From a virus (taxonomy: Duplodnaviria; Heunggongvirae; Uroviricota; Caudoviricetes): a DNA stretch of 31,774 nt. The position numbers were made by a program, and so were the translations under genes. Below, in pieces: positions 1,084 through 30,724 of the stretch; the stretch's first letter is position 1; each line of letters opens with the position of its first letter. The stretch lies in the IMG/VR virus record IMGVR_UViG_3300029846_000231; one strand, 5' to 3'. Below the pieces are notes generated by a model that saw only the letters and a program-made list of their open reading frames with translations, was not told where the DNA came from and ran no database searches.

Positions 1084-2247
1084 TCACTCATCATCTTCGG
1101 TTTCGTACTCCACATCAGAAAGCCTTACCTCAAGCTCTAAGGACGTCGTGAAGCCGCTATTATTCAGAAAATGTGTCACCTTAGTGATTGTCCAGTCCTG
1201 CTCGTCTATGACACGCTTAAAGCCTGACACTTTGACCGGTGTTTCCGTGTAAATATCTGCCCGACCGGTAGCCAGGCTGATGGAGAACTCCGCTACACCC
1301 CGTTGCAGTTTATCCCACTTCGCCTGAGCGGCGCGCATGGCCTGCGCTTTCGTGGCATATACCGTGGTCAGGGCAAAAACGTTGTCAGCCTCACCGGCCA
1401 TGTATTCACCTTCGCGCGCTTCCGGTACTTTTGGCGCTTTCTTCTGCGTGACCGGTTTCGCTTTCGGGTGCTCCAGTGCGCGCAGGTGTTTTTCTTTCTT
1501 TTTGCGTTTCAGTTTTACCTTCTGCTTTTGCGGCTTCGGGTCTTTGGTATGTAACCACTTTGCCGTTACGCCGGTGTAAGCTCCACGGTCAGCAATCGCA
1601 AAATGATGACGGTCGCCGTCGCTGCGGGTGATGGTAATCTGCGGGATTTTTTTACCGCTGGCCGTCACCCCCTGCCCCGCTTTGAGAAACAACAATTTTC
1701 CCATTTTTACCGACACCTCACCGCCGTTGCGTTCAGCAAGGCGGGTCAGGAATTTTGCATCAGACTCCTGCGACTGGTCGATGTGTGGAATTTTTATTCC
1801 GGCCAGTGACGGAGCGACACTGGCTTCCAGCCTGTTACGGGTGGCTATCGCCTTAACAATCGCACCGAGCGTGGTGTCATGCCAGGAGCCTTCCCGGCGG
1901 GAATTGAGCGTCCCGCGAAAATCTGCACTCCGGGCGCGGATGGTGACTACATCCGGTGCGCCCCGGTGTTCAACCTCATCAACGGTAAATTTCCCTTTGC
2001 ATACCAGGGCAAAACCTTTCCAGCCGATATACACCGTCAGGACAGCGCCACGAACCGGCAGCCCGACCTGCCCGTCGGCATCGTTCAGTTCAATATCAAG
2101 CTGGTCAGCCTCAAAGCCCCGGTTATCCGTCAGGGTCATGCTCATCAGACGGTCGCTGATATTGCCGGTAATATCCCTGCTGTCGAGCATCAGCATGTAA
2201 TCCGGCGTCAGCGTACTGCCTGCATCAAATGTCAGCGCATCCAGCAT
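1084..2247 (-). CDS. D: tail protein D (387 aa)
   Basis: 387-aa ORF, the P2 gpD length, in the P2 position between U and ogr, with a lysine-rich central linker. Confidence 0.85.
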   Translation of the reverse strand: MLDALTFDAGSTLTPDYMLMLDSRDITGNISDRLMSMTLTDNRGFEADQLDIELNDADGQVGLPVRGAVLTVYIGWKGFALVCKGKFTVDEVEHRGAPDVVTIRARSADFRGTLNSRREGSWHDTTLGAIVKAIATRNRLEASVAPSLAGIKIPHIDQSQESDAKFLTRLAERNGGEVSVKMGKLLFLKAGQGVTASGKKIPQITITRSDGDRHHFAIADRGAYTGVTAKWLHTKDPKPQKQKVKLKRKKKEKHLRALEHPKAKPVTQKKAPKVPEAREGEYMAGEADNVFALTTVYATKAQAMRAAQAKWDKLQRGVAEFSISLATGRADIYTETPVKVSGFKRVIDEQDWTITKVTHFLNNSGFTTSLELEVRLSDVEYETEDDE

Positions 2248-2726
2248 TATCCCGCCCCCGTCATACCTGTGAATCTGGTCGCCATACTGCCGGCCTTACC
2301 GATGAGCGATTCCGCCTGTTTACCGATATCGCCATAAAGCGCGGCCAGTGATTCATCAACGCGGGTGAGTGACAGCGTAAAATCAATTTTCCTGGGTGTG
2401 CCGTCTGCAAAGAAAATACTCCCTGTTTCACTCACCCTGCTGATGACATACATGCCGTAAATCATGCCGGTGCCATCCAGCAACGGCCACGCCCGCCCCT
2501 CCTCTGCCATCAGCCTGAGCGTGGTCATCGTCAGCTTGCCGCCGGTCAGTTCGGGATAAAGCACACCGGCCAGCGTGATGTTTTCCTCACCCACACCGAG
2601 AAACTGAAAAGCGTCCCGTTTACCGATACGGGAATTTGACGGCCAGCGATAATCTGATTCACGCTGCATGGTCTGGTGTGGCAGCGTCTGGCGCATAAAA
2701 ACAAACATACCTAACGCGAGCATCAT
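2247..2726 (-). CDS. U: tail protein U (159 aa)
   Basis: 159 aa, the P2 gpU length; its start overlaps the D stop (coupled); position between T and D. Confidence 0.85.
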   Translation of the reverse strand: MMLALGMFVFMRQTLPHQTMQRESDYRWPSNSRIGKRDAFQFLGVGEENITLAGVLYPELTGGKLTMTTLRLMAEEGRAWPLLDGTGMIYGMYVISRVSETGSIFFADGTPRKIDFTLSLTRVDESLAALYGDIGKQAESLIGKAGSMATRFTGMTGAG

Positions 2727-2740
2727 TTTTCGTCACCTCC

Positions 2741-5188
2741 TTAACCGTCATGCATCATGCTGGCACGAGCGCGCGCACGTTTATCCCGCTCGTATTTTTC
2801 GAGCGCATCCTGTAACTGGCGGTCAAGCTGTGTCCCCGGCGCAGTGCCACCCGTCAGGCTGATGTGATATTCGTTTTTACTCTGGTCCACATAAGAGCGG
2901 CCAGCCGGTGCCGTGACCGGCTGATAAGCCTGATAGCCTGCATAAGAGCTGGTCGCCGGAATATAACCACCGCTGCCATACGTGGCGGCTTGAGTTCTGG
3001 TGGCGGTCTGGTCAAGTGTGTCTGACTCTTTGTTGATAACACCGAGTTTTTCCAGTACCCAGTCAATACCACTGCGCAGTTTGTTGAACGCATTAAGCGG
3101 CAGCATCAGCGCGTCAGCCAGTGCCTGCCCGAACATGACCCCCGTGTCACGGCAACGGTTCAGGGTGTCCTGAGTGGCTTTGACCGGGGCAATCAGGTTT
3201 TTAAACCACTGCCACGCGGCCTGTAACTTTTCACCCAGCCAGTCAAACACCGGCTTAAGTGGCGTGAACAGTTCCCCCACCGGCGCAAATGCCACTTTCA
3301 GCCCTTCAACCACACCGCCAAAGAATGCGCTGACAGGCTCCCAGTATTTACGGATAAGCAACGCCCCGGCGACAATGGCAGCCACCACAGCCACAACCGG
3401 CCAGCTAATAGCCCCGATGGCGGTCATAACAGCACTGCCAACCGTCGTGAAGATTGCCCCCATTGCGCCTGCTGCCGCGATGATGGCATTGATGCCGGTG
3501 ATAACCGGCCAGGCTACAAGACCAATTGTACCGATGATGCCAATCAGCGCCAGCGCGCCACCGGCAATGAGGCCAATGGTTGACGCCAGTGATTTGTTTT
3601 TCTGGATCCAGCCGTCGAGTTTTAACACATACTTTGTGGCCGTCTGCGTGAGCTTACGTAGTGCGCCTTCCTGCTGGTCAAACAGGTCAGTCCCCACCGC
3701 CTCATAAGCGGACTGAAACTCCTTAAAGTCACCGCCGAGGTTGTCCTGCATGATATTTACCAGCTCTGCGGTCTTCCCGTCTGAGGCTTTAAACGCAGCG
3801 GTCAGTTTGTCCAGCTTTCCGGTTGAGGCGGCAGTCATCAGCACGGCGGCTGCTGAACTGGCCTCCTCACCGAAAATGGTTTTCATGTATTCAGCCTGCT
3901 GGGCAGTACCGAGCCGGTTTTTCTCAAAACTGGCCTGCATTTCTTTCAGAATGGTAAATATTGGTCGGGTATTCCCCTTGCTGTCTGAGGTTTTCACTCC
4001 AAGCTCTTTGAGTGCATCCCATGCTTTTCCCGTCGGTGCCTGCAGGCGACTTAACACGGCACGGCTTCCCGTCCCCGCCATTGAGCCTGTGATTTTTGCA
4101 TCATGCAGCGCCCCGACCATTGCGGCGGTTTCTTCAATGCTGACACCGGCATTTTTTGCCACAGGTGCGGCATAGGTCAGCGCATCGCTCATGCCGTCAA
4201 AATCGGCGGCGGTTTTGTTCATCGTCATGGAGAGAACATCCCCGATATGAGCGACCTTATCGTTTGAAAGCTGAAAGGCGGATTTCATCCCCATCAACAG
4301 GGCGGCGTTTTCTTCCATCGTGCGACGGTTCGCCAGCGCCATATTCAGCGTGACCGGCGTTGCCGCCTGAATGGCATCAACATCCCCACCGGCTTTTGCA
4401 ATGATAATCTGCGCACCGGCTGCATCATCCGCCGAGGCGGCGGTGTTGTCGCCGAGCTGGCGCGCCTGTTTGCGGAGCGCGGCCATTTCGGCGGAGTCTT
4501 TTGCCACTCCGAGCACAGCCTGTAATTCTGAGTTTTTCTGCGCAAACTCATAACCGGGCATCAGCAGCTTAACTCCGGCCATCGTTCCCGCCGCCGCAAT
4601 CCCCACACCGGCAGCGCCCACTGAGGCCATATTTCCGGCCAGTTCCTTGCCGGCCTGATAACGCTGTTTGACTGCGTTAAGTTTTGCCTGTTGCGCACTG
4701 ACACGCGCCAGCGCGTCACGCTGCCGGTTAAGCTGGGCAGTGGTTTCACTGATACGGTTTTTCAGTCCCTGCTCATCATGTGCAAGATTGCGGGTATTAA
4801 TTCCCACAGCGGCCAGTTCCCGCTGCTGGCGTTTAACGGAATCCGTCAGGCGGTTATATTTCGCCTGTAAGTCCTCCGCCGCACGCTTTGCGGATTCCAG
4901 CACTTTCGCCTGAGCACGGGTCGGACGTTCGGTGTTTTTAAACTGTGTGGCAAGGGCTTCGGCTTCCTGTCGAGCCTTTTCAAGTGCATGACCAGTCACG
5001 GCGAGCTGTGCACTGGTCTTGCGAAATCCCTCAATACGGGATGCCTGACCGTTCAGCTCGCGCAGTGATTTTTGTGTTTCCCGGATATCCCCCGACAGCG
5101 ATTTGCTCGCTGTGCGGATGGATTTAAACGGGCGGGATGCCTGGTCAACAGCCCTGAGCAATACCTGTAATTTTACATTGTTACTCAT
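2741..5188 (-). CDS. T: tail tape-measure protein T (815 aa)
   Basis: 815 aa, the P2 gpT length; coiled-coil N-terminal part and Gly/Ala-rich hydrophobic central segments typical of tape-measure proteins; follows E/E'. Confidence 0.9.
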   Translation of the reverse strand: MSNNVKLQVLLRAVDQASRPFKSIRTASKSLSGDIRETQKSLRELNGQASRIEGFRKTSAQLAVTGHALEKARQEAEALATQFKNTERPTRAQAKVLESAKRAAEDLQAKYNRLTDSVKRQQRELAAVGINTRNLAHDEQGLKNRISETTAQLNRQRDALARVSAQQAKLNAVKQRYQAGKELAGNMASVGAAGVGIAAAGTMAGVKLLMPGYEFAQKNSELQAVLGVAKDSAEMAALRKQARQLGDNTAASADDAAGAQIIIAKAGGDVDAIQAATPVTLNMALANRRTMEENAALLMGMKSAFQLSNDKVAHIGDVLSMTMNKTAADFDGMSDALTYAAPVAKNAGVSIEETAAMVGALHDAKITGSMAGTGSRAVLSRLQAPTGKAWDALKELGVKTSDSKGNTRPIFTILKEMQASFEKNRLGTAQQAEYMKTIFGEEASSAAAVLMTAASTGKLDKLTAAFKASDGKTAELVNIMQDNLGGDFKEFQSAYEAVGTDLFDQQEGALRKLTQTATKYVLKLDGWIQKNKSLASTIGLIAGGALALIGIIGTIGLVAWPVITGINAIIAAAGAMGAIFTTVGSAVMTAIGAISWPVVAVVAAIVAGALLIRKYWEPVSAFFGGVVEGLKVAFAPVGELFTPLKPVFDWLGEKLQAAWQWFKNLIAPVKATQDTLNRCRDTGVMFGQALADALMLPLNAFNKLRSGIDWVLEKLGVINKESDTLDQTATRTQAATYGSGGYIPATSSYAGYQAYQPVTAPAGRSYVDQSKNEYHISLTGGTAPGTQLDRQLQDALEKYERDKRARARASMMHDG

Positions 5189-8039: not shown

Positions 8040-8094
8040 GATGGATCCCCTGAATAAAAACCGGGGATGATGCCAGTTAGCCGTAATCTCTGCA

Positions 8095-8120
8095 TTTTCT
8101 TAAACGTTGGTTTGGGAGAA
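8095..8120. repeat. candidate gix/hix-like invertase crossover site (left end of invertible segment)
   Basis: 26-bp 12-2-12 site ttttcttaaacg-tt-ggtttgggagaa. The reverse complement of its right half, TTCTCCCAAACC, resembles the Gin/Hin half-site consensus TTATCAAAAACC. It lies at the start of the silent fibre cassette, at the shared GLG codons. Confidence 0.55.
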
Positions 8121-8480
8121 GCGGCAAAACGGGGGGTGGGAACAGGGGAAAATCAGATACCGGACATGGCTTCATTTAGTGGGGTGAGGGATTATTACGG
8201 AAAACAACTTTTGCCAGGAGGGTTGATACTTCAGTGGCTGACGATTCCATCAAGTGCAGCAGCCAAAGCTGTAACACTGAATAATGGTAATTATCAGCTG
8301 TCAGGCTATAAATGGCCCCAGTCATTTGGTGTCCTGTTTGCTGTGTTTGCTACAAAAGTTTCTGGCTCGACTAACGAAGCATATGCAATCTCAGTTAATC
8401 GTCACTCTACCGATGTAATTGTCACCTGGAATGCCCGTAAGGCTGATGATGTCCACATTTTAGGAATTGGGAAATTATGA
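8109..8480 (+). CDS. silent alternative tail-fibre C-terminal cassette (expressed only after inversion)
   Basis: Frame begins with [23 protein letters not shown], paralogous to residues 277-299 of H (GLGTAAKKDVGTGTGQVPDMSSF), then diverges. No independent promoter or RBS is expected. Confidence 0.65.
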
Positions 8481-8896
8481 AAATGAAATGGTCCCCATCT
8501 GTTCAGGGATTTTTCTCTGAAAATAACAGCGATATTCCCGATGATGCTTTCGATATTGAAGATGCTCTTTATTATGAACTTATGAATGGTCAGAGTACGG
8601 GGAAAATTATTATCAATAACCCGGATAACTACCCTGTACTTACTGAATATCCAGCGAAGACACAGGAACAGGAAATAGCTGAAGCGGAGGGAATGAAAAG
8701 TATACTTATTGAACAGGCCAACGAATACATGAACAGTAAGCAATGGCCTGGTAAAGCCGCTATTGGTCGTCTGAAAGGTGAGGAACTGGCGCAATATAAT
8801 TTGTGGCTGGATTATCTGGACGCACTGGAACTGGTTGATACCTCCAGTGCTCCAGATATTGAATGGCCTACGCCTCCGGCAGTTCAGGCCAGATGA
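8477..8896 (+). CDS. alternative tail-fibre assembly chaperone (Tfa-like), cognate to the silent cassette
   Basis: 139 aa, start overlaps the cassette stop (ATGA). C-terminus [16 protein letters not shown] is paralogous to the C-terminus of the active Tfa ([15 protein letters not shown]). Confidence 0.65.
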
Positions 8897-9299
8897 CATC
8901 CGGCGCAGGGGAAGTATCTACCGCTTCCAATTTCTTGGCATAACTCCGCCAGGCTATGAGCCTGGCTTTATCTGCATCGCTGATAATTCCGAGCAGTAAA
9001 TCAGTCTGCCATTCACGAACAGCTTCCGCAGATTCGGCCATTAGCTGCGCTTTTTGGTTTTCTGCCTCCTGCACTGCGATAGCGTGAAGCTCATCATCTG
9101 TTGGAGGCGGAATATCTTCCCACGCAGGCAAACCATCAGCACCCGGCACACGTCGCTTCCCGTCGTTTTCTCCGATAAAAAATTCTGCAAAAATCTCGTT
9201 CGAAACAGGGACGGCATCAGTAAATGCGTCTGTTTTCAGTAAAGTACTTCCTGCAGCAATGAACACATTCTTTTTTGCGCTGTAATAGTAACTGGTCAT
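8868..9299 (-). CDS. G: tail-fibre assembly protein (Tfa, P2 gpG-like), active orientation
   Basis: 143 aa immediately downstream of H, with the conserved Tfa C-terminal motif; converges on the alternative tfa with a 29-nt overlap. Confidence 0.75.
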   Translation of the reverse strand: MTSYYYSAKKNVFIAAGSTLLKTDAFTDAVPVSNEIFAEFFIGENDGKRRVPGADGLPAWEDIPPPTDDELHAIAVQEAENQKAQLMAESAEAVREWQTDLLLGIISDADKARLIAWRSYAKKLEAVDTSPAPDVIWPELPEA

Positions 9300-19453: not shown

Positions 19454-21226
19454 ATGACCATCACCACAGACACCACTCTTTTACACGACCCGCGTCGTCA
19501 GGCGGCGCTGCTGTACTGGCAGGGGTTTTCCGTGCCGCAGATTGCCGCCATGTTGCAGATGAAACGTCCGACGGTGCAGAGCTGGAAACAGCGCGACGGC
19601 TGGGACAGCGTTGCCCCCATCAGCCGTGTCGAAATGAGTCTGGAAGCGCGACTGACCCAGCTCATCATCAAACCGCAGAAAACCGGCGGTGACTTCAAGG
19701 AAATTGACCTGCTGGGACGCCAGATTGAACGACTGGCACGGGTAAACCGCTACAGTCAGACCGGCAACGAGGCAGACCTTAATCCGAACGTCGCTAACCG
19801 CAACAAAGGCGGGCGACGCAAACCGAAAAAGAATTTTTTCAGCGACGAGGCCATCGAAAAGCTGGAGCAGATTTTCTTTGAGCAGTCTTTCGAATATCAG
19901 TTGCACTGGTATCGCGCCGGGCTTGAGCACCGCATCCGCGATATCCTGAAATCCCGCCAGATTGGCGCGACGTTTTATTTTTCCCGCGAGGCGCTGCTGC
20001 GCGCCCTGAAAACCGGTCATAACCAGATTTTTCTGTCGGCCAGTAAAACGCAGGCGTATGTGTTCCGCGAATACATCATCGCCTTTGCCCGTCTGGTTGA
20101 CGTTGACCTGACCGGTGACCCGATTGTCCTGGGCAATAACGGCGCAAAACTGATTTTTCTCGGCACCAACTCCAACACCGCACAGAGCCATAACGGCGAC
20201 CTGTACGTCGACGAGATTTTCTGGATCCCGAATTTTCAGGTACTGCGTAAGGTGGCATCAGGTATGGCCTCACAGAGTCACCTGCGCTCGACCTATTTCT
20301 CCACCCCGTCCACGCTGGCGCACGACGCCTACCCGTTCTGGTCGGGTGAACTGTTCAACCGGGGACGCGCCAGCGCCGCCGAACGCGTGGAAATCGACGT
20401 CAGTCATAACGCCCTTGCCGGTGGGTTTCTCTGTGCGGACGGCCAGTGGCGGCAGATTGTCACCATTGAGGACGCCCTGAAAGGTGGCTGCACGCTGTTC
20501 GACATTGAGCAGCTTAAACGCGAAAACAGCGCCGACGATTTTAAAAACCTGTTCATGTGTGAATTTGTTGACGACAAGGCGTCGGTATTCCCGTTCGAGG
20601 AGCTGCAACGCTGCATGGTCGACACGCTGGAAGAATGGGAAGACTATGCGCCGTTTGCCGCCAATCCGTTCGGCTCCCGCCCGGTCTGGATTGGTTACGA
20701 CCCGTCACACCGTGGCGACAGTGCCGGATGCGTGGTGCTGGCACCGCCGGTGGTGGCCGGTGGCAAATTCAGAATACTTGAGCGTCACCAGTGGAAAGGC
20801 ATGGACTTTGCCACCCAGGCTGAATCCATCCGCAAACTCACCGAAAAATACAACGTCGAATACATCGGAATTGATGCCACCGGCCTCGGTGTCGGCGTGT
20901 TCCAGCTCGTTCGCTCGTTCTATCCCGCCGCGCGCGATATCCGCTACACGCCGGAAATGAAAACCGCAATGGTGCTCAAGGCAAAAGACGTTATTCGCCG
21001 TGGCTGTCTGGAATATGACGTCAGCGCCACCGACATCACCAGCTCGTTTATGGCTATCCGCAAGACCATGACCAGCAGCGGACGCAGCGCCACCTATGAG
21101 GCCAGCCGCAGCGAGGAAGCCAGCCACGCCGACCTCGCCTGGGCGACCATGCACGCCCTGTTAAATGAGCCACTCACCGCGGGTATCAGCACTCCGCTGA
21201 CATCCACCATTCTGGAGTTTTACTGA
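19454..21226 (+). CDS. P: terminase large (ATPase) subunit P (590 aa)
   Basis: Start at MTITTDTTLLHDPRRQAALLYWQGFSVPQIAAM gives 590 aa, the P2 gpP length; preceded by GAGGT 5 nt upstream. Confidence 0.9.
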   Translation: MTITTDTTLLHDPRRQAALLYWQGFSVPQIAAMLQMKRPTVQSWKQRDGWDSVAPISRVEMSLEARLTQLIIKPQKTGGDFKEIDLLGRQIERLARVNRYSQTGNEADLNPNVANRNKGGRRKPKKNFFSDEAIEKLEQIFFEQSFEYQLHWYRAGLEHRIRDILKSRQIGATFYFSREALLRALKTGHNQIFLSASKTQAYVFREYIIAFARLVDVDLTGDPIVLGNNGAKLIFLGTNSNTAQSHNGDLYVDEIFWIPNFQVLRKVASGMASQSHLRSTYFSTPSTLAHDAYPFWSGELFNRGRASAAERVEIDVSHNALAGGFLCADGQWRQIVTIEDALKGGCTLFDIEQLKRENSADDFKNLFMCEFVDDKASVFPFEELQRCMVDTLEEWEDYAPFAANPFGSRPVWIGYDPSHRGDSAGCVVLAPPVVAGGKFRILERHQWKGMDFATQAESIRKLTEKYNVEYIGIDATGLGVGVFQLVRSFYPAARDIRYTPEMKTAMVLKAKDVIRRGCLEYDVSATDITSSFMAIRKTMTSSGRSATYEASRSEEASHADLAWATMHALLNEPLTAGISTPLTSTILEFY

Positions 21227-22260
21227 TGAGCAAGAAAAAAGGGAAAACACCGCAACCTGCGGCAAAAAAAATGACCGCCAGCACCCCGAAAATGGAGGCA
21301 TTCACCTTTGGCGAGCCGGTACCGGTACTCGACCGCCGTGACATTCTGGATTACGTCGAGTGCATCAGTAACGGCAGATGGTATGAACCACCGGTCAGCT
21401 TTACCGGTCTGGCAAAAAGCCTGCGTGCTGCCGTGCATCACAGCTCACCGATTTACGTCAAACGTAATATTCTGGCCTCAACATTTATCCCGCATCCGTG
21501 GCTTTCCCAGCAGGATTTCAGCCGCTTTGTGCTGGATTTTCTGGTGTTCGGTAATGCGTTTCTGGAAAAGCGTTACAGCACCACCGGTAAGGTCATCAGA
21601 CTGGAAACCTCACCGGCAAAATATACCCGCCGTGGTGTGGAAGAGGATGTTTACTGGTGGGCGCCGTCCTTCAACGAGCCGACAGCCTTCGCGCCCGGCT
21701 CCGTGTTTCACCTGCTGGAGCCGGATATTAATCAGGAGCTGTACGGCCTGCCGGAATATCTCAGCGCCCTTAACTCTGCCTGGCTGAATGAGTCGGCCAC
21801 GCTGTTCCGCCGCAAGTATTACGAAAATGGCGCACATGCCGGATACATCATGTACGTCACTGATGCCGTGCAGGATCGCAACGATATCGAAATGCTTCGC
21901 GAAAACATGGTCAAGTCGAAAGGCCGCAACAACTTTAAAAATCTGTTTCTCTATGCCCCGCAGGGGAAAGCCGACGGTATTAAAATTATCCCGCTCAGTG
22001 AAGTGGCAACGAAGGACGATTTTTTTAATATCAAAAAAGCCAGCGCCGCTGACCTGCTGGACGCGCACCGCATCCCCTTTCAGTTGATGGGCGGCAAGCC
22101 GGAGAACGTCGGGTCGCTGGGTGATATTGAGAAAGTGGCAAAGGTCTTTGTCCGCAATGAACTTATCCCGTTACAGGACAGGATTCGGGAAATAAACGGC
22201 TGGCTCGGCCAGGAGGTCATCCGCTTTAAAAACTACTCACTGGACACTGACAACGGCTGA
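21226..22260 (+). CDS. Q: portal protein Q (344 aa)
   Basis: 344 aa; N-terminus MSKKKGKTPQPAAKKMTASTPKMEAFTFGEP as in P2 gpQ; start overlaps the P stop. Confidence 0.9.
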   Translation: MSKKKGKTPQPAAKKMTASTPKMEAFTFGEPVPVLDRRDILDYVECISNGRWYEPPVSFTGLAKSLRAAVHHSSPIYVKRNILASTFIPHPWLSQQDFSRFVLDFLVFGNAFLEKRYSTTGKVIRLETSPAKYTRRGVEEDVYWWAPSFNEPTAFAPGSVFHLLEPDINQELYGLPEYLSALNSAWLNESATLFRRKYYENGAHAGYIMYVTDAVQDRNDIEMLRENMVKSKGRNNFKNLFLYAPQGKADGIKIIPLSEVATKDDFFNIKKASAADLLDAHRIPFQLMGGKPENVGSLGDIEKVAKVFVRNELIPLQDRIREINGWLGQEVIRFKNYSLDTDNG

Positions 22261-22265
22261 ACATC

Positions 22266-22287
22266 GCCGCCTGCGGGCGGCTTTTTT
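22266..22287 (+). terminator. Rho-independent terminator after Q
   Basis: Stem gccgcc / ggcggc with loop tgcg followed by TTTTTT, 6 nt after the Q stop. Confidence 0.65.
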
Positions 22288-22429
22288 ACACCCCGTCATC
22301 ACGCCCTCACACGCTCACCACCGCACAAAATACCCCGCAGACACACCAACGCCCCGGCGCACAATCTAAACGCCATCAAGACGCGCTCAGACGCTGAAAA
22401 AATAAAATCAGCACCACCGCCAGCGCGCA

Positions 22430-22448
22430 GTGCTTTCCCCGCCTCGCC
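22430..22448. other. cos site (19-nt cohesive-end sequence)
   Basis: gtgctttccccgcctcgcc is the reverse complement of GGCGAGGCGGGGAAAGCAC, which I recall as the P2 cohesive end; located about 170 bp beyond Q, as in P2. Confidence 0.8.
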
Positions 22449-22686
22449 CGCCCGCTTCATGGGGCAGTTTTAATGCAGTTGCATAGATACTATGGATCCG
22501 CACCAGTCCTGACCGCACGCAGCCTGAACGGACATCCCCGACGCATGCAAAAACATTCACTTGTTGCATGCAACGGCTTATTTAATGACAAATCAACTTA
22601 AATTTACAAAATCCACAGGTATGGATACTTTGCGAACATGATAGGCTTACGAGAATTATCGAGCCTATTTTTGACCGGAGCAATGT

Positions 22687-23628
22687 ATGCAAGGTAAAGT
22701 TGACGAACAGCAATCCAATGATATTGAAGCTGAGTTTGGATACTATCCAGTAGAAGTTAACGTTGAAACTGATGATTTTTCTTTACTTACTTTACCCGGT
22801 CTAGCGGAAAAAACAAATCTTATAAACAATCACAGAAATGTTATTAACGGTTGGATATACCCAGGAAACCAAGAAGTATATAACCTCAATGGAGGCATAT
22901 CCACAATGCCTTTTAGCCAACGAGTATTTGGCTTACCCAAAACACACTCACTAAAATTAAAAAATACATCTTCACTAGAAACTCTCAATTTTGCTGTGTG
23001 GTGTCTGTCTTTTTTCAAAGGGATAAGATTAACAACTACTGATGCCGGTTTTTTAGACGCAACCCCAATAAAACCTAGCAAATTAACTGACTTTATTCTG
23101 GTCAAGTGCTCTGAAAAAGAGGTTATAGAATTAGCACTCAAATACATGTCTAGCGAGACAAAAACCAAACACGCACCAATAAATATAGCAGCAATAGTGC
23201 ATGCACTATTTTTATCCCAAAACCCACAATACCTTAGCTTCGAAAAATTCCAGTATCTTTATATGGCACTGGATAGTTGCTTTGCTTTAACATGGGCAGA
23301 AAAGAACAAGTGTACAGAAAAGACTCTAAATCACTCCAGGCGCTTGAAGTGGATCTGCAAAACTTATGGAATACCACGACCATCATGGGTTACAGGCAAA
23401 AAAAACATTACAAACATCCGCAATGAAAACTTTCATGAAGCTATGTTTCATGGTCAACCACTTGGCTTTACCACTATTAACAATTATCAATATGGAGATG
23501 ACATATTACAACAAATGCAGGCTTTAATTTGCCGATTACTCGTTGCGATTCTTGGTGTTAACGCCCCCGATTACATCACATCGAACGTGAACTCTCGTGA
23601 ATATCATTCACTAACATTAAAAATATAA
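22687..23628 (+). CDS. hypothetical protein, 313 aa, AT-rich cargo; candidate HEPN-like defence effector
   Basis: GGAG 6 nt before the ATG. Strong compositional contrast with flanking phage genes. C-terminal region has KNITNIRNENFHEAMFHG, i.e. an R-N-x3-H motif of the HEPN type (Rx4-6H). Family not recognised. Confidence 0.6.
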   Translation: MQGKVDEQQSNDIEAEFGYYPVEVNVETDDFSLLTLPGLAEKTNLINNHRNVINGWIYPGNQEVYNLNGGISTMPFSQRVFGLPKTHSLKLKNTSSLETLNFAVWCLSFFKGIRLTTTDAGFLDATPIKPSKLTDFILVKCSEKEVIELALKYMSSETKTKHAPINIAAIVHALFLSQNPQYLSFEKFQYLYMALDSCFALTWAEKNKCTEKTLNHSRRLKWICKTYGIPRPSWVTGKKNITNIRNENFHEAMFHGQPLGFTTINNYQYGDDILQQMQALICRLLVAILGVNAPDYITSNVNSREYHSLTLKI

Positions 23629-23644
23629 AACGACTAAAAATACT

Positions 23645-23668
23645 CTCCAGTAACAATAAGTACTGGAG
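23645..23668 (-). terminator. Rho-independent terminator between the convergent cargo genes
   Basis: 8-bp stem ctccagta / tactggag with 8-nt loop; on the minus strand followed by AGTATTTTTAG, 40 nt after the stop of the 199-aa gene. Confidence 0.55.
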
Positions 23669-23710
23669 ATGTATTATCACTAAAACCAATAAAAAATCAC
23701 AACTAATGCT

Positions 23711-24310
23711 TTACTTAGATAGTTTGTCTTTAATTATATTCAGAACACCAATTATTAATTCACTGATTGGCGTGGCCAACTCAATAGTATTAGATGTCGA
23801 CTTTGTTCTAAAGTCTTTATCTGTCGGGTGTTGAAATGCTGATTTAAGAAGAGTCAAAAGCAAAGTTAAACCCACACCAAGGATGAATGCAACAATAGCT
23901 ATTAGAGAACTGGCCGATAACCAATCGGTGGATAAACCAGAAATAGATTTTCTAACTTTATTAGTGTCTGAAGATGGTGTTATCCTCTCATCAGCCATCT
24001 TCGGATCCGAAGATAAAGCAGAACATTTTTCTGCTGAAACACAAGTTTGTGTATCTACTTTTTGTGTTATCGCTGCGGCAATACTGCTTTTCGCTTCCAG
24101 CAAGCCATTTCCAACAGCCAAAGCAAAGTTAAGCCCCTGCCATAGAAATGTACAAGCAAAACAAAGCACAACGGCAGAGAGCACTAATCGCATGCTTCTA
24201 CGCTCTATACCATCCCGTCTATCTCGCCTTATAAGGATATCAGGATCTAAATCGCCCTTAGGAGTGGTTCCTTGCTCTGGGGACTGTCCAGATAAATCAA
24301 TATCAGCCAT
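23711..24310 (-). CDS. hypothetical membrane protein, 199 aa, two predicted transmembrane helices
   Basis: Hydrophobic stretches LVLSAVVLCFACTFLWQGLNFALAVGNGLL and LIAIVAFILGVGLTLLLTLL; charged N-terminus (RRDRRDGIERR). Same strand and 66 nt downstream of the peptidase gene; AT-rich. Confidence 0.6.
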   Translation of the reverse strand: MADIDLSGQSPEQGTTPKGDLDPDILIRRDRRDGIERRSMRLVLSAVVLCFACTFLWQGLNFALAVGNGLLEAKSSIAAAITQKVDTQTCVSAEKCSALSSDPKMADERITPSSDTNKVRKSISGLSTDWLSASSLIAIVAFILGVGLTLLLTLLKSAFQHPTDKDFRTKSTSNTIELATPISELIIGVLNIIKDKLSK

Positions 24311-24376
24311 AAAAAAATCACCCTTACATGTACAAACGTAAAGGTGATTTTAAACAGGTTAAAAGTTAAAGGCTAA

Positions 24377-24862
24377 TTAATAAGCCATTCCTAAGCTCTT
24401 TAAGCGCCAATGCATAGCGGCTTCTGATACATTAAAGATGCTTGCTAATCTCAAAGTGCTATCAATACCTTCTCTGGATACCAATTGACGTATAGCAGAC
24501 TCAGGCATTAACAACTCAGCAGCAAACTTGTTTGCTTCAACCTCACGGTAATCACGAGCACCTGTTGAATAATTCCCGACATTATCCCGATGGTACTCTC
24601 CGTCCTGGGTATGCCCCAGCACATGATGACCTAACTCGTGTGCAACAGTAAAACGTTGACGATTAGAATGTTCACTAGAATCAAAATAAATCCTATGGAC
24701 ACCCTTTTTGATGACAGCCAGACCGCTTAACCCATCGTTGTTATAAGCCGATTCCTCAAGTGCTTCAACACGAGCACCCCACGCTTTAGCAAGCTTAAAC
24801 GGATCGACAGGTAGTCGGCGATCCCAATAGCGGTCAAGCAGTTTTTTAGCTGCATAGCTCAT
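24377..24862 (-). CDS. ImmA/IrrE-family (M78-type, COG2856-like) Zn-metallopeptidase domain protein, 161 aa
   Basis: HEXXH motif in FTVAHELGHHVLGH plus downstream EANKFAAELLMPE, the characteristic ImmA/IrrE signature. AT-rich; no adjacent XRE/HTH partner on either strand. Confidence 0.7.
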   Translation of the reverse strand: MSYAAKKLLDRYWDRRLPVDPFKLAKAWGARVEALEESAYNNDGLSGLAVIKKGVHRIYFDSSEHSNRQRFTVAHELGHHVLGHTQDGEYHRDNVGNYSTGARDYREVEANKFAAELLMPESAIRQLVSREGIDSTLRLASIFNVSEAAMHWRLKSLGMAY

Positions 24863-25583
24863 GGTTGCCTCCTACGTTAAAAAAGTTAAGTATGCACAGC
24901 CATATCACAGTTGTTATTTTATGTCAAGGCTGTTTTTCAGCCATTACTATAACACTAATCCACGTTTTCCCATAACATTTTCGACATCATATATGCATTC
25001 CGTTCTGCATATAGAGCTTATCTTTGCTGATAACACGAGATGAATACGCGCAACCAGCCCACGATTTATAAAAAACCTTATAAATCAGAATATTGAGTTA
25101 AAAAAACACTAACTACTTGCGCAGCGCGTTGTTAAACCTCAGCGACACTAAAAGAAAATTTCAGAGTCACCGAAGTTTCCACAGAAAACGCAACTTAATG
25201 ATTTTATTGGAATTTATGTCGCTATTTTTAATTACTTGTTTAAATCCGCCATATTGAAACTGTGCATTTCTAGCCACTCACAACTTTAAAAAATTTACAT
25301 TGCTTTCAAGACCTTATCATCCGTAGTCTCTGCTTTTTACTTTGAGCTATATCAAAAAAAGCTCAAACATCCTTGATGCAAAACCAGTATTACACAACAT
25401 AAAATGCAACCAGAAACAACGACATACTATATGTTGTGTTGTTCAGGTCCTCTGTTCGGTGATATGCCAGATCACTTTGCGTTTAAACAGAGCATTATTT
25501 CAGGGCAAGACTTCGCTCAATAGTCACTCCGCCTTAGAAGCGCATATATCGGCGGAAATTGCCCTCTGCTTACAGGAGGCGAT

Positions 25584-25697
25584 ATGAAGAAGTGCTATTA
25601 CTGCATTCTCGTTCTGGCCCTCTTTGGCTATCCATATGGTAGTCCGAGTGGTTTGTCAGTAAACGTCAGTAATATCCATGTAAGTATTTTTCTTTAG
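25584..25697 (+). CDS. small hydrophobic peptide, 37 aa (MKKCYYCILVLALFGYPYGSPSGLSVNVSNIHVSIFL); type I toxin-like or small membrane protein
   Basis: Consensus SD AGGAGG 4 nt before the ATG; TAG stop 13 nt before a strong terminator hairpin. Short, with a hydrophobic core after a KK N-terminus. Confidence 0.4.
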   Translation: MKKCYYCILVLALFGYPYGSPSGLSVNVSNIHVSIFL

Positions 25698-25710
25698 TAT
25701 GCTTCAAACA

Positions 25711-25739
25711 AAAAAACCACCTGCCAGGGTGGTTTTTTT
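25711..25739. terminator. bidirectional Rho-independent terminator
   Basis: A6-ccacctg-cc-agggtgg-T7: GC-rich hairpin flanked by an A-run and a T-run, so it can terminate the small plus-strand gene and minus-strand transcription from A. Confidence 0.65.
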
Positions 25740-25999
25740 GCGCCCGTCATCAATCCGATGAAAGACTAGCAAGACTTCGCTCGAGATGAATTATGCTTCG
25801 ACATAAAGTCACTCGCAATGGTTTTATTAACCGAAATAGATGCTCTTTTATGACTCGAATCAAATAGCTGCCTTCAATTACATGCTAACGATTCAATACA
25901 ATTTAGCCTTCTGATTCAACACGCTATTGCTCCTCATCTACCTTAGAGGTGCTTCGCATAATCCATTCAAAGACATATAAAATCACGCTGTATTTTTAC

Positions 26000-28276
26000 T
26001 CAAATGGGTAACAAAAACCCCGGCCAATCATCAGCGACCTGATAAGTGAAAGGTTTCCCGTCATAATTTACGGTCGCGCCACGCGCCAGCGCCTCAAGCT
26101 CCCATCGTTGCGGCCTGATACCGTTCTGAGCGAGATCAACGCGGATACGGGTAATTTGCAATCGTTCCGACCGGGTCAGTCTGGCCGATGGTGCAATTTC
26201 ATGCGGTTTTAACGGGCTTCCGTTTCTTTGCTGACGGTTTGGCGTTCTCCGGTCGTGTTTTAATGCGCCCCTGAGCGCCCTCACGACCTCCGGGTCATTC
26301 CATTCGATAACATCGTCATCAACCAGATTAAGCACTGCTGCGGCGTGCTCAGAAGGTGTGGGAGCCGGTAACGAAGTATCACCACCGGTGAGCTTTCCAC
26401 AGTTATTGACAGGACTCCGAGGCGCGGCGATGCCGCTTTTTAAAGTCAAAGGCTCAACGACCGGAACTTTCGGCACAATGCGCCAGTCCGTCGTTCTGGT
26501 GATATGAATATGACGCGCGCCGAGATGCGGCGCGTAAATGCCGACCACTCTCTCGACTTCTTCCTCGTACTCGTTAACGTCATCCGACAGACTACGGGCG
26601 ACCCTGACAGTCTGACAATCGCGCGGGACATTTGCCCCGCCCTGCGCGCTGATATACAGCGCAAAATCACCACTGTCTGCGGCGGCGCGTGCAGCCTCGA
26701 CGCGCTCGTCAAACTCATCAGCAATGCTGACGCCGCGAGGCAATTTGCGTAGTTCACGGTAAGCCCCCATTGTCGGCAGGCCAACCGTTTTAAATTGCGG
26801 AATGCGCCACGTTGACGCCCATGCGGTAACAGCCGCTGCAGTGTCTTTCAGCGGCCTGCCGGTGTCGTTATCGAGCTGACCATCCAGTGCATAGCCGTCG
26901 ATGTTTTTTGAAATGTATTTCGCGATATATCCCGCAGCACCGCCCCGGTTAAGGTGTTTTGCCTGAAAACGGTTTCGCGCGGCTCCTCTTTCGTCGCCAT
27001 CCTCTTTGAGCGCATAGCGACGCATGATTTCGATAATCTGGTTACGCTGGCGTGGATGACAAAAAAGCATCATATGCCAGTGCGGCGTTCCGTCGTGGTG
27101 TGGCTCGACGACTCGCAAACCGTAGACCTGTAAATCATTATCCTTGAATGCCGTGCGCATCAGGCTCCAGATACGGCAGAGATAACGCTGCGCATCCTTT
27201 GGATTAAATGCCTCATCGTTCCAGCCGTGATTAAGCTGAACGGTTTTACTTTCGCCTTTTCCGACCTGACGTGTCGGGTGATACTTTGACGGCGCGGTCA
27301 GCGTGATAAACATCCCCACATCACCCTCTGCGGCGGCGTAACGCTCAATACCGGCAATGGTGTTCATCAGCTCCATCCGGCGAATTTCAGGATTAGAAAT
27401 ACTGCCCATCACCTTACTGATAAGGTCGATGCGCTCGCCGGTTTCCCTGTTTTCAAGGTCACACGATTTAAGAAATTCCAGATTTGCCTGGCGGCGCGCA
27501 CGCACATCACGAATGGCGTGTTTACTGGCATAAGGAGAACGGTCTTTATTGACCTCCCCGACAGCTATCAGTAACGCCTCATGCCAGCGCATACGCTGGC
27601 CTTTAAGCTGATGAGTCCACCACTCATCGTTAAACAGGCGGGCAATGGCAGAATATGCCTGCCTCGTGGTCATCTGTCCTTTACGGTATTTTTTCCAGTA
27701 GAGCGGGGAAATATTGAAAGCACGTGCAGCGCCAGCAACATGACCATACAGGTGAGCCTGCGCCTCATCCGTAAACAGCGATTCTTTTTCACCATGCGCA
27801 TCAACCCATGCATCGCAGAGTTCCTCATACATCATGAAAAGCTGCGATGAGATACGGGCGGCAAACTTTTTCAGCTCCTTGTCATTCATTCCCGGCAGGC
27901 GCGCATAGTGGTCACGCTCTGCCAGAAACAGCAACGACGCGTCGGTGTTCATTTCATGGCGCTGATTCACACGCTCAATGCGCGGCCATAAACGACGCTG
28001 AAAAGTAGATGTGAGGAAATAAAACCCGTGCACCGGGCTTTTATTGCGCCGGATGTAGTCATAGCGTGAAGTAAACAGCGAGCGCAAAAAGTAAGGCAGG
28101 CGGTTAATCGTGGATAAAACACCTTGCACCTGACGCATCTCGTCACGTGTAAGAGGTCTTTCGCGCCCGACAGCCTCGCGTGGCGCGTTCCATGCATAAG
28201 CACCGGTAAACGCCTTACCGGTGCCTGCGGTAAATGCTGACGGAGGGACAAAACGCCCGGAGGCTTTAACGGCCAT
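26000..28276 (-). CDS. A: replication initiation protein A (rolling-circle nicking endonuclease), about 758 aa
   Basis: Start at MAVKASGRFVPPSAFTAGTGK as I recall for P2 gpA (about 761 aa); the six-frame ORF extends 14 codons upstream. Large protein in the P2 A position after orf83. Confidence 0.85.
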   Translation of the reverse strand: MAVKASGRFVPPSAFTAGTGKAFTGAYAWNAPREAVGRERPLTRDEMRQVQGVLSTINRLPYFLRSLFTSRYDYIRRNKSPVHGFYFLTSTFQRRLWPRIERVNQRHEMNTDASLLFLAERDHYARLPGMNDKELKKFAARISSQLFMMYEELCDAWVDAHGEKESLFTDEAQAHLYGHVAGAARAFNISPLYWKKYRKGQMTTRQAYSAIARLFNDEWWTHQLKGQRMRWHEALLIAVGEVNKDRSPYASKHAIRDVRARRQANLEFLKSCDLENRETGERIDLISKVMGSISNPEIRRMELMNTIAGIERYAAAEGDVGMFITLTAPSKYHPTRQVGKGESKTVQLNHGWNDEAFNPKDAQRYLCRIWSLMRTAFKDNDLQVYGLRVVEPHHDGTPHWHMMLFCHPRQRNQIIEIMRRYALKEDGDERGAARNRFQAKHLNRGGAAGYIAKYISKNIDGYALDGQLDNDTGRPLKDTAAAVTAWASTWRIPQFKTVGLPTMGAYRELRKLPRGVSIADEFDERVEAARAAADSGDFALYISAQGGANVPRDCQTVRVARSLSDDVNEYEEEVERVVGIYAPHLGARHIHITRTTDWRIVPKVPVVEPLTLKSGIAAPRSPVNNCGKLTGGDTSLPAPTPSEHAAAVLNLVDDDVIEWNDPEVVRALRGALKHDRRTPNRQQRNGSPLKPHEIAPSARLTRSERLQITRIRVDLAQNGIRPQRWELEALARGATVNYDGKPFTYQVADDWPGFLLPI

Positions 28277-28541
28277 ATGAGCCAAAAGCCTCTGAACAAC
28301 GCTTGCTGAGTTGCTCAACCTGCGCGTTTAAATCAGCAAAAGATTTTGCGCTTCCGGTCAGAATATCGTGATGCATCAGGCCGGAAACGAGCTGGCCTAA
28401 TTTCGGGTAATAACCAACCACCGCCAGCCATTCCTGACCGGCGTTTTTACCGCTTTCCGCTCTCTTTTTCTCGTGGAGAATAAACTGAAAGCTGTCACTG
28501 GTAACGACATAACGTTCGCCAATTTCAACACGAATACTCAT
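28266..28541 (-). CDS. P2 orf83-like protein (91 aa)
   Basis: Small ORF in the P2 early operon between orf82 and A; start overlaps the orf82 stop. Confidence 0.7.
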   Translation of the reverse strand: MSIRVEIGERYVVTSDSFQFILHEKKRAESGKNAGQEWLAVVGYYPKLGQLVSGLMHHDILTGSAKSFADLNAQVEQLSKRCSEAFGSYGR

Positions 28542-30430: not shown

Positions 30431-30724
30431 ATGAAATTAAGCGAAAAGATTAAGGCCTTGCGTGAGGCTGAAGGGCTAAGCCAATCAAAATTCTGTGAAA
30501 TCATAGAGTTACCGCTAAGCACACTTAAAAAATATGAAGGAGGAAACTTTGAACCCGGTGGCACAGCTTTGCTAAAAATCACTATGCATCCCACATTCCA
30601 AAAATATGCTCTATGGCTTATGACAGATAAAACCGCGCCGGACGCAGGACAAATCGCACCGGCTCTCGCGCACATTGGGCCAGAGTCAACAGAGTCCAAC
30701 CACTCCGCGAAAAGGATTGGCTAA
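30431..30724 (+). CDS. C: immunity repressor C (97 aa)
   Basis: 97 aa; C-terminal region contains GQIAPALAH and ...KYALWLMTDKTAPDAGQ..., resembling P2 C repressor (99 aa) as I recall it; directly upstream of int. Confidence 0.8.
   Translation: MKLSEKIKALREAEGLSQSKFCEIIELPLSTLKKYEGGNFEPGGTALLKITMHPTFQKYALWLMTDKTAPDAGQIAPALAHIGPESTESNHSAKRIG

Follow-up and report, generated by a model that had tools for sequence, protein, structure and literature searches.

A HEPN-domain protein and an M78 peptidase–membrane protein pair as two separable candidate defence modules in the hotspot of a P2-like prophage

Results

Cargo of the Q/cos–A locus

IMG/VR virus record IMGVR_UViG_3300029846_000231, a DNA stretch of 31,774 nucleotides (nt) to which we refer in full as the window, contains an AT-rich island between the portal gene Q with its adjoining cos region and the replication gene A. 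In this work we analysed the three genes of this island, namely ORF313 (an open reading frame, ORF, of 313 amino acids, aa), a gene for an M78 zinc metallopeptidase and a gene for a membrane protein with two transmembrane segments (2TM protein). Outside the island, the window holds a complete P2-like prophage, which has Ogr, tail-fibre assembly genes, DUF5405, Cox, an XRE-type C repressor and an integrase. On the left, the island is preceded by gene Q (Pfam Phage_portal; 21,226-22,260, plus strand) and by the conserved P2 cos region at 22,261-22,500, which is 93-97% identical to that of P2-like phages. The right flank is gene A, encoding the replication endonuclease (Pfam Phage_GPA, E 2.8e-124; 26,000-28,318, minus strand).

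GC content ranged from 0.348 to 0.432 in each 500-bp window between 22,501 and 26,000; the phage genes on either side have 0.52-0.63. For the cargo proper (22,602-25,156) it was 0.385, corresponding to z = -4.2 when compared with 230 other 2.55-kb windows of the same prophage (mean 0.543, minimum 0.450). The original prediction, made from the letters of this DNA, had described an AT-rich island in a GC-rich backbone that lies between cos/Q and gene A and lacks the P2 genes tin and old. The GC profile, the Pfam assignments of the flanks and the ORF content bear this out: old and tin were not found, and none of the three island ORFs matches Old or another ATPase/TOPRIM model in Pfam or PADLOC.

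An empty site is provided by a prophage of E. coli 504838 (NZ_CP025856), which is collinear with 21,202-22,601 of the window and then jumps to 25,157-26,065. Since this prophage skips the stretch in between, the cargo is exactly 22,602-25,156 (2,555 bp). The island had first been drawn from 22,261 to 25,999; its middle part is cargo, whereas 22,261-22,601 and 25,157-25,999 are backbone. Comparison with other P2-like prophages also showed that cargo at the site varies and that the three genes are not core genes shared by all relatives, as had been anticipated. The locus is the P2 Q/cos–A hotspot, and the island is horizontally acquired, variable cargo. An Rfam search of 22,200-26,100 at E <= 1 gave sub-threshold chance matches only and no evidence of a known non-coding RNA; the matches discarded were RNAI (27.8 bits versus a gathering score of 47), mir-644 and Phe leader.

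Only three ORFs of at least 100 aa are found in the island, ORF313 on the plus strand and, convergent with it, the M78 gene followed by the 2TM gene on the minus strand. Three unrecognised genes in two convergent units had been predicted, which is correct for number and arrangement, but the M78 gene is recognisable (Pfam Peptidase_M78). Both units run into one hairpin, whose U-tract is good on the minus strand and weak on the plus strand. The cargo features are as follows, with no strand given for features that have none assigned.

22,602-25,156: cargo insertion of 2,555 bp that comprises all three genes and the M78 promoter; the E. coli 504838 prophage has the empty site
22,687-23,628, plus strand: ORF313, 313 aa, a single-gene module and candidate abortive-infection RNase with a C-terminal HEPN domain
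23,419-23,436, plus strand: putative catalytic Rx4H motif of the HEPN domain, codons for R245-N-E-N-F-H250, from alignment conservation
23,644-23,669: hairpin common to both convergent units, from a terminator scan of both strands (-17.0 and -16.5 kcal/mol)
23,711-24,310, minus strand: 199-aa inner-membrane protein, candidate membrane effector or toxin, from hydropathy, an alignment of 20 homologues and PHROG 8096
24,377-24,862, minus strand: M78 (ImmA/IrrE-type) zinc metallopeptidase, 161 aa, single domain (Pfam PF06114, E 3.8e-21)
24,899-24,927, minus strand: likely promoter of the M78-2TM operon, with -35 TTGACA, 17-nt spacer and extended -10 TGaTATGGC, followed by the ribosome-binding site TAGGAGG

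ORF313, a single-gene HEPN candidate

ORF313 is built of an N-terminal alpha/beta domain (residues ~10-140) without a recognised fold and a C-terminal domain (~143-300) with the all-alpha fold of HEPN domains; its AlphaFold2 model has a pLDDT (predicted local distance difference test) of 83. The HEPN domain was assigned because of its Rx4-6H signature, with sacsin HEPN and Csm6 as further grounds. In an alignment of 27 ORF313 sequences R245, N246, H250 and E251 are invariant. In a more distant set of 23 sequences, with 22 relatives down to 25% identity, R245 and H250 are still invariant and N246 is conserved in at least 90%. Judged by fold and motif, both of which were tested here, ORF313 carries a HEPN domain, and it would presumably act as an RNase; HEPN RNases need no metal and mostly work as dimers. 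The N-terminal domain has invariant residues of its own, namely G18, T86-H87, G112 and D135.

The protein has no match in Pfam, PADLOC or NCBIfam, and the only family to which it belongs is PHROG 5937, whose label gives no function. Likewise, 36 further relatives matched no HEPN family in Pfam scans and nothing in PADLOC. Among the BFVD viral structures nothing was found at E <= 0.001. Against PDB sequences, the ORF313 profile had a single marginal match, 40 residues at the ribonucleotide reductase R2 N-terminus (E 0.006), which was treated as chance.

Homologues of ORF313 are numerous: we collected 603, mostly of ~315 aa, from Enterobacterales, Aeromonas, Acinetobacter, Pseudomonas and Stenotrophomonas, and a profile search gave 650 clusters at 50% identity. 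No partner is conserved beside ORF313, which in Aeromonas stands solitary among housekeeping genes. In P. aeruginosa a homologue is located in an island resembling a mobile element, ~3 kb from a Gabija-like pair. DefensePredictor lists WP_001161722.1, which is exactly ORF313, as a "predicted novel defense gene" with a mean log-odds of 9.68 (strict cutoff, log-odds 4); the protein is outside the systems validated there. The DefensePredictor protein DS-40 (311 aa, with a weak HEPN hint) appeared unrelated to ORF313 in a side-by-side reading of the sequences only.

The M78 peptidase and its membrane partner

In the M78 protein the HEXXH motif is intact (residues 75-79; nt 24,626-24,640), and an EANxFAxELLMP block follows downstream. 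Its best PADLOC match is capP (1.1e-30, profile positions 8-153 of 242); RmrA profiles are matched at 6e-17 to 5e-7, with the alignment confined to their peptidase part (e.g., positions 146-267 of 363). CapP (7t5t, 7.6e-7) is also the best match among PDB sequences, and IrrE is found as well. The protein contains no cysteine and no GAF domain, and no helix-turn-helix (HTH) match was obtained for it in Pfam. A CapH/ImmR-like HTH ORF is absent from both strands of 22,602-25,156, and none is conserved beside the homologous pairs; small upstream ORFs in two relatives (L005, L020) look unrelated from reading their translations only. With the M78 protein, a contig scan returned distant relatives only.

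The promoter block was read from the sequence and is conserved in three diverged P2 variants, L002 and L020 among them. No LexA box was found upstream of the M78 gene in the window, and six homologous modules gave one loose CTG-N10-CAG match, 276 nt upstream of the start codon in L007. A perfect palindrome, ATATGCA-N8-TGCATAT (24,991-25,012), is located ~65-85 nt upstream of the -35 element; two diverged variants preserve it in part only, so it may be non-functional. The 16 nt that precede the M78 start codon (AACGTAGGAGGCAACC; window 24,863-24,878, L005 and L007 4429-4444) are near-identical in E. coli, Serratia and Enterobacter. In these same copies the coding sequences are ~70% identical and the remaining upstream DNA is unrelated.

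The 199-aa form of the 2TM protein is conserved among the 20 aligned homologues, and PHROG 8096 is likewise 199 aa long. According to the predicted topology, a cytoplasmic, partly Pro-rich N-tail with an Arg cluster at its end is followed by the first transmembrane segment (~41-66) and a periplasmic loop of ~65 aa, in which a conserved C-x5-C precedes a hypervariable stretch that differs in both length and sequence. The second transmembrane segment is nearly invariant (AFILGVGLTLxLTLLK), and the C-terminus is predicted to form a conserved cytoplasmic amphipathic helix. The window and E. coli TA280 differ far more in the membrane protein (55% identity) than in the peptidase (87.6%).

The M78 and 2TM genes share a strand, with the M78 gene first and 66 nt between them. 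Outside E. coli, an M78 gene of 161-164 aa lies directly upstream of the homologous membrane-protein gene in all four lineages checked, i.e., on a Serratia chromosome, on Enterobacter plasmids, in Acinetobacter and in Vibrio, and upstream of these pairs nothing is conserved past the ribosome-binding site. The Enterobacter plasmid pairs lie near zeta-toxin, DprA and HNH genes, the Vibrio pair in an islet between serine recombinases. In Comamonas, Desulfovibrionaceae, Parasutterella and Hymenobacter, more distant short M78 genes (35-47% identity) overlap with a small 2TM ORF that comes next, and several alphaproteobacterial ones have in front a small membrane ORF for which one or more transmembrane segments are predicted. 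Nine small membrane proteins linked to M78 genes matched no SLATT, holin or other Pfam family above threshold. Short M78 peptidases without HTH and small membrane proteins hence form a conserved mobile two-gene cassette that is strictly paired across genera.

As a separate observation, the Serratia M78-2TM pair (L005/L006, 4445-9246) is found ~1.8 kb from a second pair, in which a gene of 223 aa precedes an HTH-M78 gene of 371 aa, an arrangement with RosmerTA (RmrT/RmrA) architecture. Two M78-based modules are thus located side by side there, between the phn and nrdD operons.

Two modules that occur apart

In a megablast search, 46 of 5,426 complete E. coli genomes contained the whole island and 2,161 matched some part of the query; the island was also found in Salmonella phage MET_P1_103_31. 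Other cargo occupies the site in S21, P2-EC67 and FDAARGOS_1280. P2-EC67 has an allele of ORF313 beside the unrelated ORF226 and ORF73, and a second allele (78% identity) lies beside DinI-like genes without the peptidase. Conversely, the P2-like phage OU784750 and E. coli 602687 have the M78 gene and its membrane partner without ORF313. Near-identical alleles nearly always occur together in the complete E. coli genomes, with the M78 pair in 47, ORF313 at >=99% identity in 47 and the full island in 46. The two units are convergent, each with its own signals. In sum, the cargo consists of two independent modules that also occur apart, and is not one three-gene system.

Backbone features and other regions of the prophage

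The backbone on both sides of the cargo has the following features.

22,261-22,601: cos-proximal backbone outside the cargo (GC 0.55), with P2-like conservation; the empty-site prophage (L018) matches without a break as far as 22,601
22,266-22,281: portal-gene terminator from the terminator scan, inside the cos-proximal backbone
25,157-25,999: semi-conserved AT-rich backbone downstream of gene A, not cargo (GC 0.383)
25,584-25,697, plus strand: 37-codon ORF (MKKCYYCILVLALFGY...) in this backbone segment, with a GGAGG ribosome-binding site and a hydrophobic N-terminus
25,709-25,740: strong bidirectional intrinsic terminator (-19 kcal/mol, U7 tract on each strand)

The segment 25,157-25,999 has 86-94% identity to sequences beside gene A in ~150 complete E. 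coli genomes, in which other cargo or none is present; it accompanies different cargo in S21 (L017) and is found at the empty site of 504838 (L018), where nothing else fills the hotspot. There is no annotated gene in these ~0.85 kb. The small peptide gene that had been counted among the island genes exists as an ORF with a ribosome-binding site, but it is part of this backbone and not of the cargo. It is intact in all five variants, with weak coding evidence; in L017 nine nucleotide differences result in four synonymous and three non-synonymous codon changes. PHROG and NCBIfam gave no match, and the ORF could encode a small membrane peptide or be a type I toxin-like gene. An overlapping 81-codon ORF (25,342-25,587) was rejected as non-coding, with a stop and a frameshift in L017. 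The terminator at 25,709-25,740 ends the early (gene A) operon on the minus strand and the small-ORF transcript on the plus strand.

The cargo of E. coli S21 (L017), an AAA ATPase and a hypothetical gene, is located between the portal gene and the cos-proximal block (1605-3603, 3850-3998). Because it sits across cos from the cargo of the window, the hotspot has two insertion points flanking cos. Elsewhere in the prophage, the tail-fibre region 8,067-9,299 is low in GC (0.45), with Caudo_TAP genes on opposite strands (8,477-8,896, plus; 8,868-9,299, minus) and a gp53-like fibre tip fragment (8,067-8,480, plus); this region resembles a host-range cassette of alternative or inverted type. Beyond ogr (783-1,115), a minus-strand ORF of 213 aa at 1-642 (GC 0.40) has no Pfam match and probably lies outside the prophage end or is further cargo.

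Discussion

The P2 hotspot is known as a reservoir of anti-phage systems, with 18,150 instances surveyed (Rousset et al. 2022, Cell Host Microbe, PMC9122126). The locus studied here is the same site between portal/cos and gene A, and its cargo is likewise variable and AT-rich. That survey counts ORF313 as system #11 (218 occurrences, no domain given) and Peptidase_M78 + 2TM as system #21 (148 occurrences) in Table S5B. The exact arrangement is listed as well, as "Peptidase_M78 + hypothetical + hypothetical" (WP_000119270 + WP_001161722 + WP_001389947), and the same M78 allele is found both with and without ORF313 (Table S5A). The two modules had therefore not gone unnoticed. That this is the likeliest defence or exclusion site of the window is still a reasonable view, given the known hotspot, the HEPN domain and the likeness to RosmerTA, except that two already catalogued modules are concerned. 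Already known are thus the kind of locus, the catalogued arrangement and the flagging of ORF313 by machine learning; new in this work are the HEPN assignment with its catalytic residues, the cargo boundaries, the transfer of the small ORF to the backbone and the cross-genus M78-2TM cassette. A full-text literature search on the protein accessions found no paper discussing them.

ORF313 shares its helical HEPN fold and the Rx4H motif (invariant R245/H250 in ORF313) with AbiV, the HEPN domain of AbiA, HepS, ApeA and the HEPN/MNT toxins, but none of these matches it at sequence level in Pfam, PADLOC, NCBIfam or PDB. The ApeA (Gao_Ape) profile matches neither ORF313 nor its 36 relatives, and one relative (P0063) is "Apea-like HEPN" by its UniRef name only. 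Like single-protein HEPN defence nucleases, ORF313 is solitary and found on prophages and mobile islands, and its additional N-terminal domain could be a sensor.

The M78-2TM pair resembles the toxin-antitoxin (TA) defence modules of the RosmerTA type (RmrT + RmrA), to judge from its sequences: in both, an M78/ImmA domain and an unrelated small partner form a two-gene operon that is carried by phages and plasmids. Ernits et al. (2023, PMC10440598) described the ImmA-protease domain as a hub antitoxin of the NetFlax TA network with many toxin partners, among them a membrane-depolarising toxin in Gordonia phage Kita. RmrA usually has an N-terminal HTH (Xre), whereas the 161-aa M78 protein of the window has none; in that study an HTH is "often" present in the antitoxin and gene order varies. 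The 2TM protein matches no RmrT model, and a toxin role could be proposed for it only by analogy. CapP/CapH, IrrE/DdrO and ImmA/ImmR have the M78 catalytic domain with HEXXH in common with the pair. In CapP, however, a C-terminal GAF domain, which IrrE has too, forms a groove for single-stranded DNA (ssDNA), whereas the M78 protein of the window ends at residue 161 (291 in 7t5t). CapP/CapH also feature a cysteine-switch loop and an adjacent HTH repressor gene, neither of which is present in the cargo. Since GAF domain, cysteine and adjacent HTH gene are absent, an ssDNA-sensing, repressor-cleaving mechanism is not simply transferable.

We moderately favour the interpretation that the island is horizontally acquired hotspot cargo whose two independent modules most likely protect the lysogen from other phages by abortive infection. 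There is a good chance that one or both modules have a genuine anti-phage function; for ORF313 by itself we rate this slightly better than even, and for the M78-2TM pair it is a tentative proposal that falls somewhat short of even. ORF313 would be a latent ribonuclease acting through its C-terminal HEPN domain (R245 and H250 in RNxxxH), with the N-terminal domain either keeping HEPN inactive or sensing infection. Upon a trigger, the HEPN site might cut RNA (tRNA, mRNA or rRNA), and translation would stop. The second module, which appears to have its own sigma-70 promoter, would pair the M78 peptidase with a two-pass inner-membrane protein. In analogy to RosmerTA, the 2TM protein might be a toxin that depolarises the membrane, with the peptidase as its antitoxin or regulator, possibly acting on the cytoplasmic tails of the 2TM protein. 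RNase activity, toxicity, triggers and defence phenotype are what we infer for the two modules.

Several points weigh against this interpretation. Some HEPN domains are non-catalytic or have housekeeping functions. Modelled alone, the N-terminal domain of ORF313 gave no informative fold match. The 2TM protein matched no known toxin family in Pfam or PADLOC, the RmrT models included. Because HTH, GAF domain, cysteine switch and a CapH partner are absent, the substrate of the M78 peptidase cannot be read across from RmrA or CapP. Neither module has a known phenotype. A homologue of system #21 (E. coli TA280, pFR104 "Peptidase + TM", native promoter), assayed against an eight-phage panel, is found only among the "additional tested systems" of Table S2B (PMC9122126). 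This negative is weak evidence against defence since the Kita RosmerTA system defended against two BASEL phages only (PMC10440598).

Alternatively, the modules could be addiction or stability elements in the sense of plain TA, or other lysogenic-conversion cargo, that serve the prophage or mobile elements and have no anti-phage role. We consider this unlikely, albeit it has a number of observations on its side. Addiction modules are typically found in settings such as those of the pair near a zeta toxin on Enterobacter plasmids and between serine recombinases in the Vibrio islet, and the TA280 homologue, assayed on eight phages, is outside Rousset's validated systems (PMC9122126). Moreover, P2 hotspot cargo is not all defence, as about one quarter of the hotspots contain partition systems and ~2% a cytolethal toxin (PMC9122126). 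TA and defence are not exclusive, however, and RosmerTA is both (PMC10440598). ORF313 has no partner gene that could be an antitoxin, and its DefensePredictor score is high. In addition, six of eight unknown loci of the P4 hotspot protected against phages in a 2026 NAR study.

More speculatively, the M78-2TM pair might be an undescribed protease-gated membrane effector, with ORF313 founding a new family of single-protein HEPN defence proteins with a novel sensor domain; we regard this as rather improbable. The 2TM protein would then sense an envelope event via its fast-evolving loop, or be held as a pro-toxin, and the HTH-less ImmA-type peptidase would cleave its cytoplasmic tail, upon which a pore opens. 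Short M78 genes with an adjacent small transmembrane gene occur in several phyla. If true, the pair would be a bacterial counterpart to pore formers activated by proteases, in a widespread, minimal two-gene cassette.

It is quite improbable that the 2TM protein is instead a superinfection-exclusion protein or envelope sensor, the loop of which meets phage or colicin components while the peptidase processes or relays the signal, as in a split BlaR1-type sensor-protease. Such a role would fit the predicted N-in/C-in topology with its ~65-aa loop, in which C-x5-C is consistent with a disulfide and precedes the hypervariable stretch, next to a near-invariant second transmembrane segment and C-tail. 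The marked divergence of the membrane proteins of the window and TA280 (55% identical, peptidases 87.6%) would fit as well. On the other hand, the homologue blocked no phage of Rousset's panel (PMC9122126), and the loops are short in distant M78-linked 2TM proteins, from which it follows that the loop is not essential to pairing. Furthermore, no substrate or signal partner is encoded.

The nearly constant company of near-identical M78-2TM and ORF313 alleles in complete E. coli genomes could also mean that the three genes are one system, in which the M78 peptidase, as a switch of the CapP/ImmA kind, would respond to DNA damage by controlling or activating ORF313, the membrane protein or both. 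That capP is the best PADLOC match of the peptidase (1.1e-30) is in agreement with such a switch. Yet the modules are found apart in other P2-like phages and genera, the same M78 allele occurs with or without ORF313, the cargo has no HTH ORF, the peptidase lacks GAF domain and cysteine, and the convergent units are not co-transcribed, which makes a single system very unlikely. We give hardly any credence to the M78 protein being an anti-repressor that alters induction by cleaving XRE-type repressors, be it the prophage's own C protein (a 97-aa HTH_3 protein, 30,431-30,724) or those of rival prophages: ImmA, IrrE and CapP all cleave small HTH repressors of this type, but the pair also occurs in chromosomal and plasmid settings outside phages without a conserved HTH neighbour or conserved upstream DNA, and its constant partner is a membrane protein and not a repressor.

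As the P2 hotspot is a proven source of immune systems, the two modules of this cargo, which we favour as independent defence functions of the lysogen, represent two of its commoner unexplained entries (#11, 218 loci; #21, 148 loci). If neither module gave a phenotype, this would mark an abundant hotspot cargo that is not defence. The HEPN motif makes the ORF313 family of ~650 clusters, for which neither Pfam nor the defence databases have a model, a directly testable single-gene candidate. The pairing of M78 and 2TM genes across genera extends the ImmA-protease hub of RosmerTA to an HTH-less form, and it raises the question of what an ImmA-type protease targets when no repressor is encoded.

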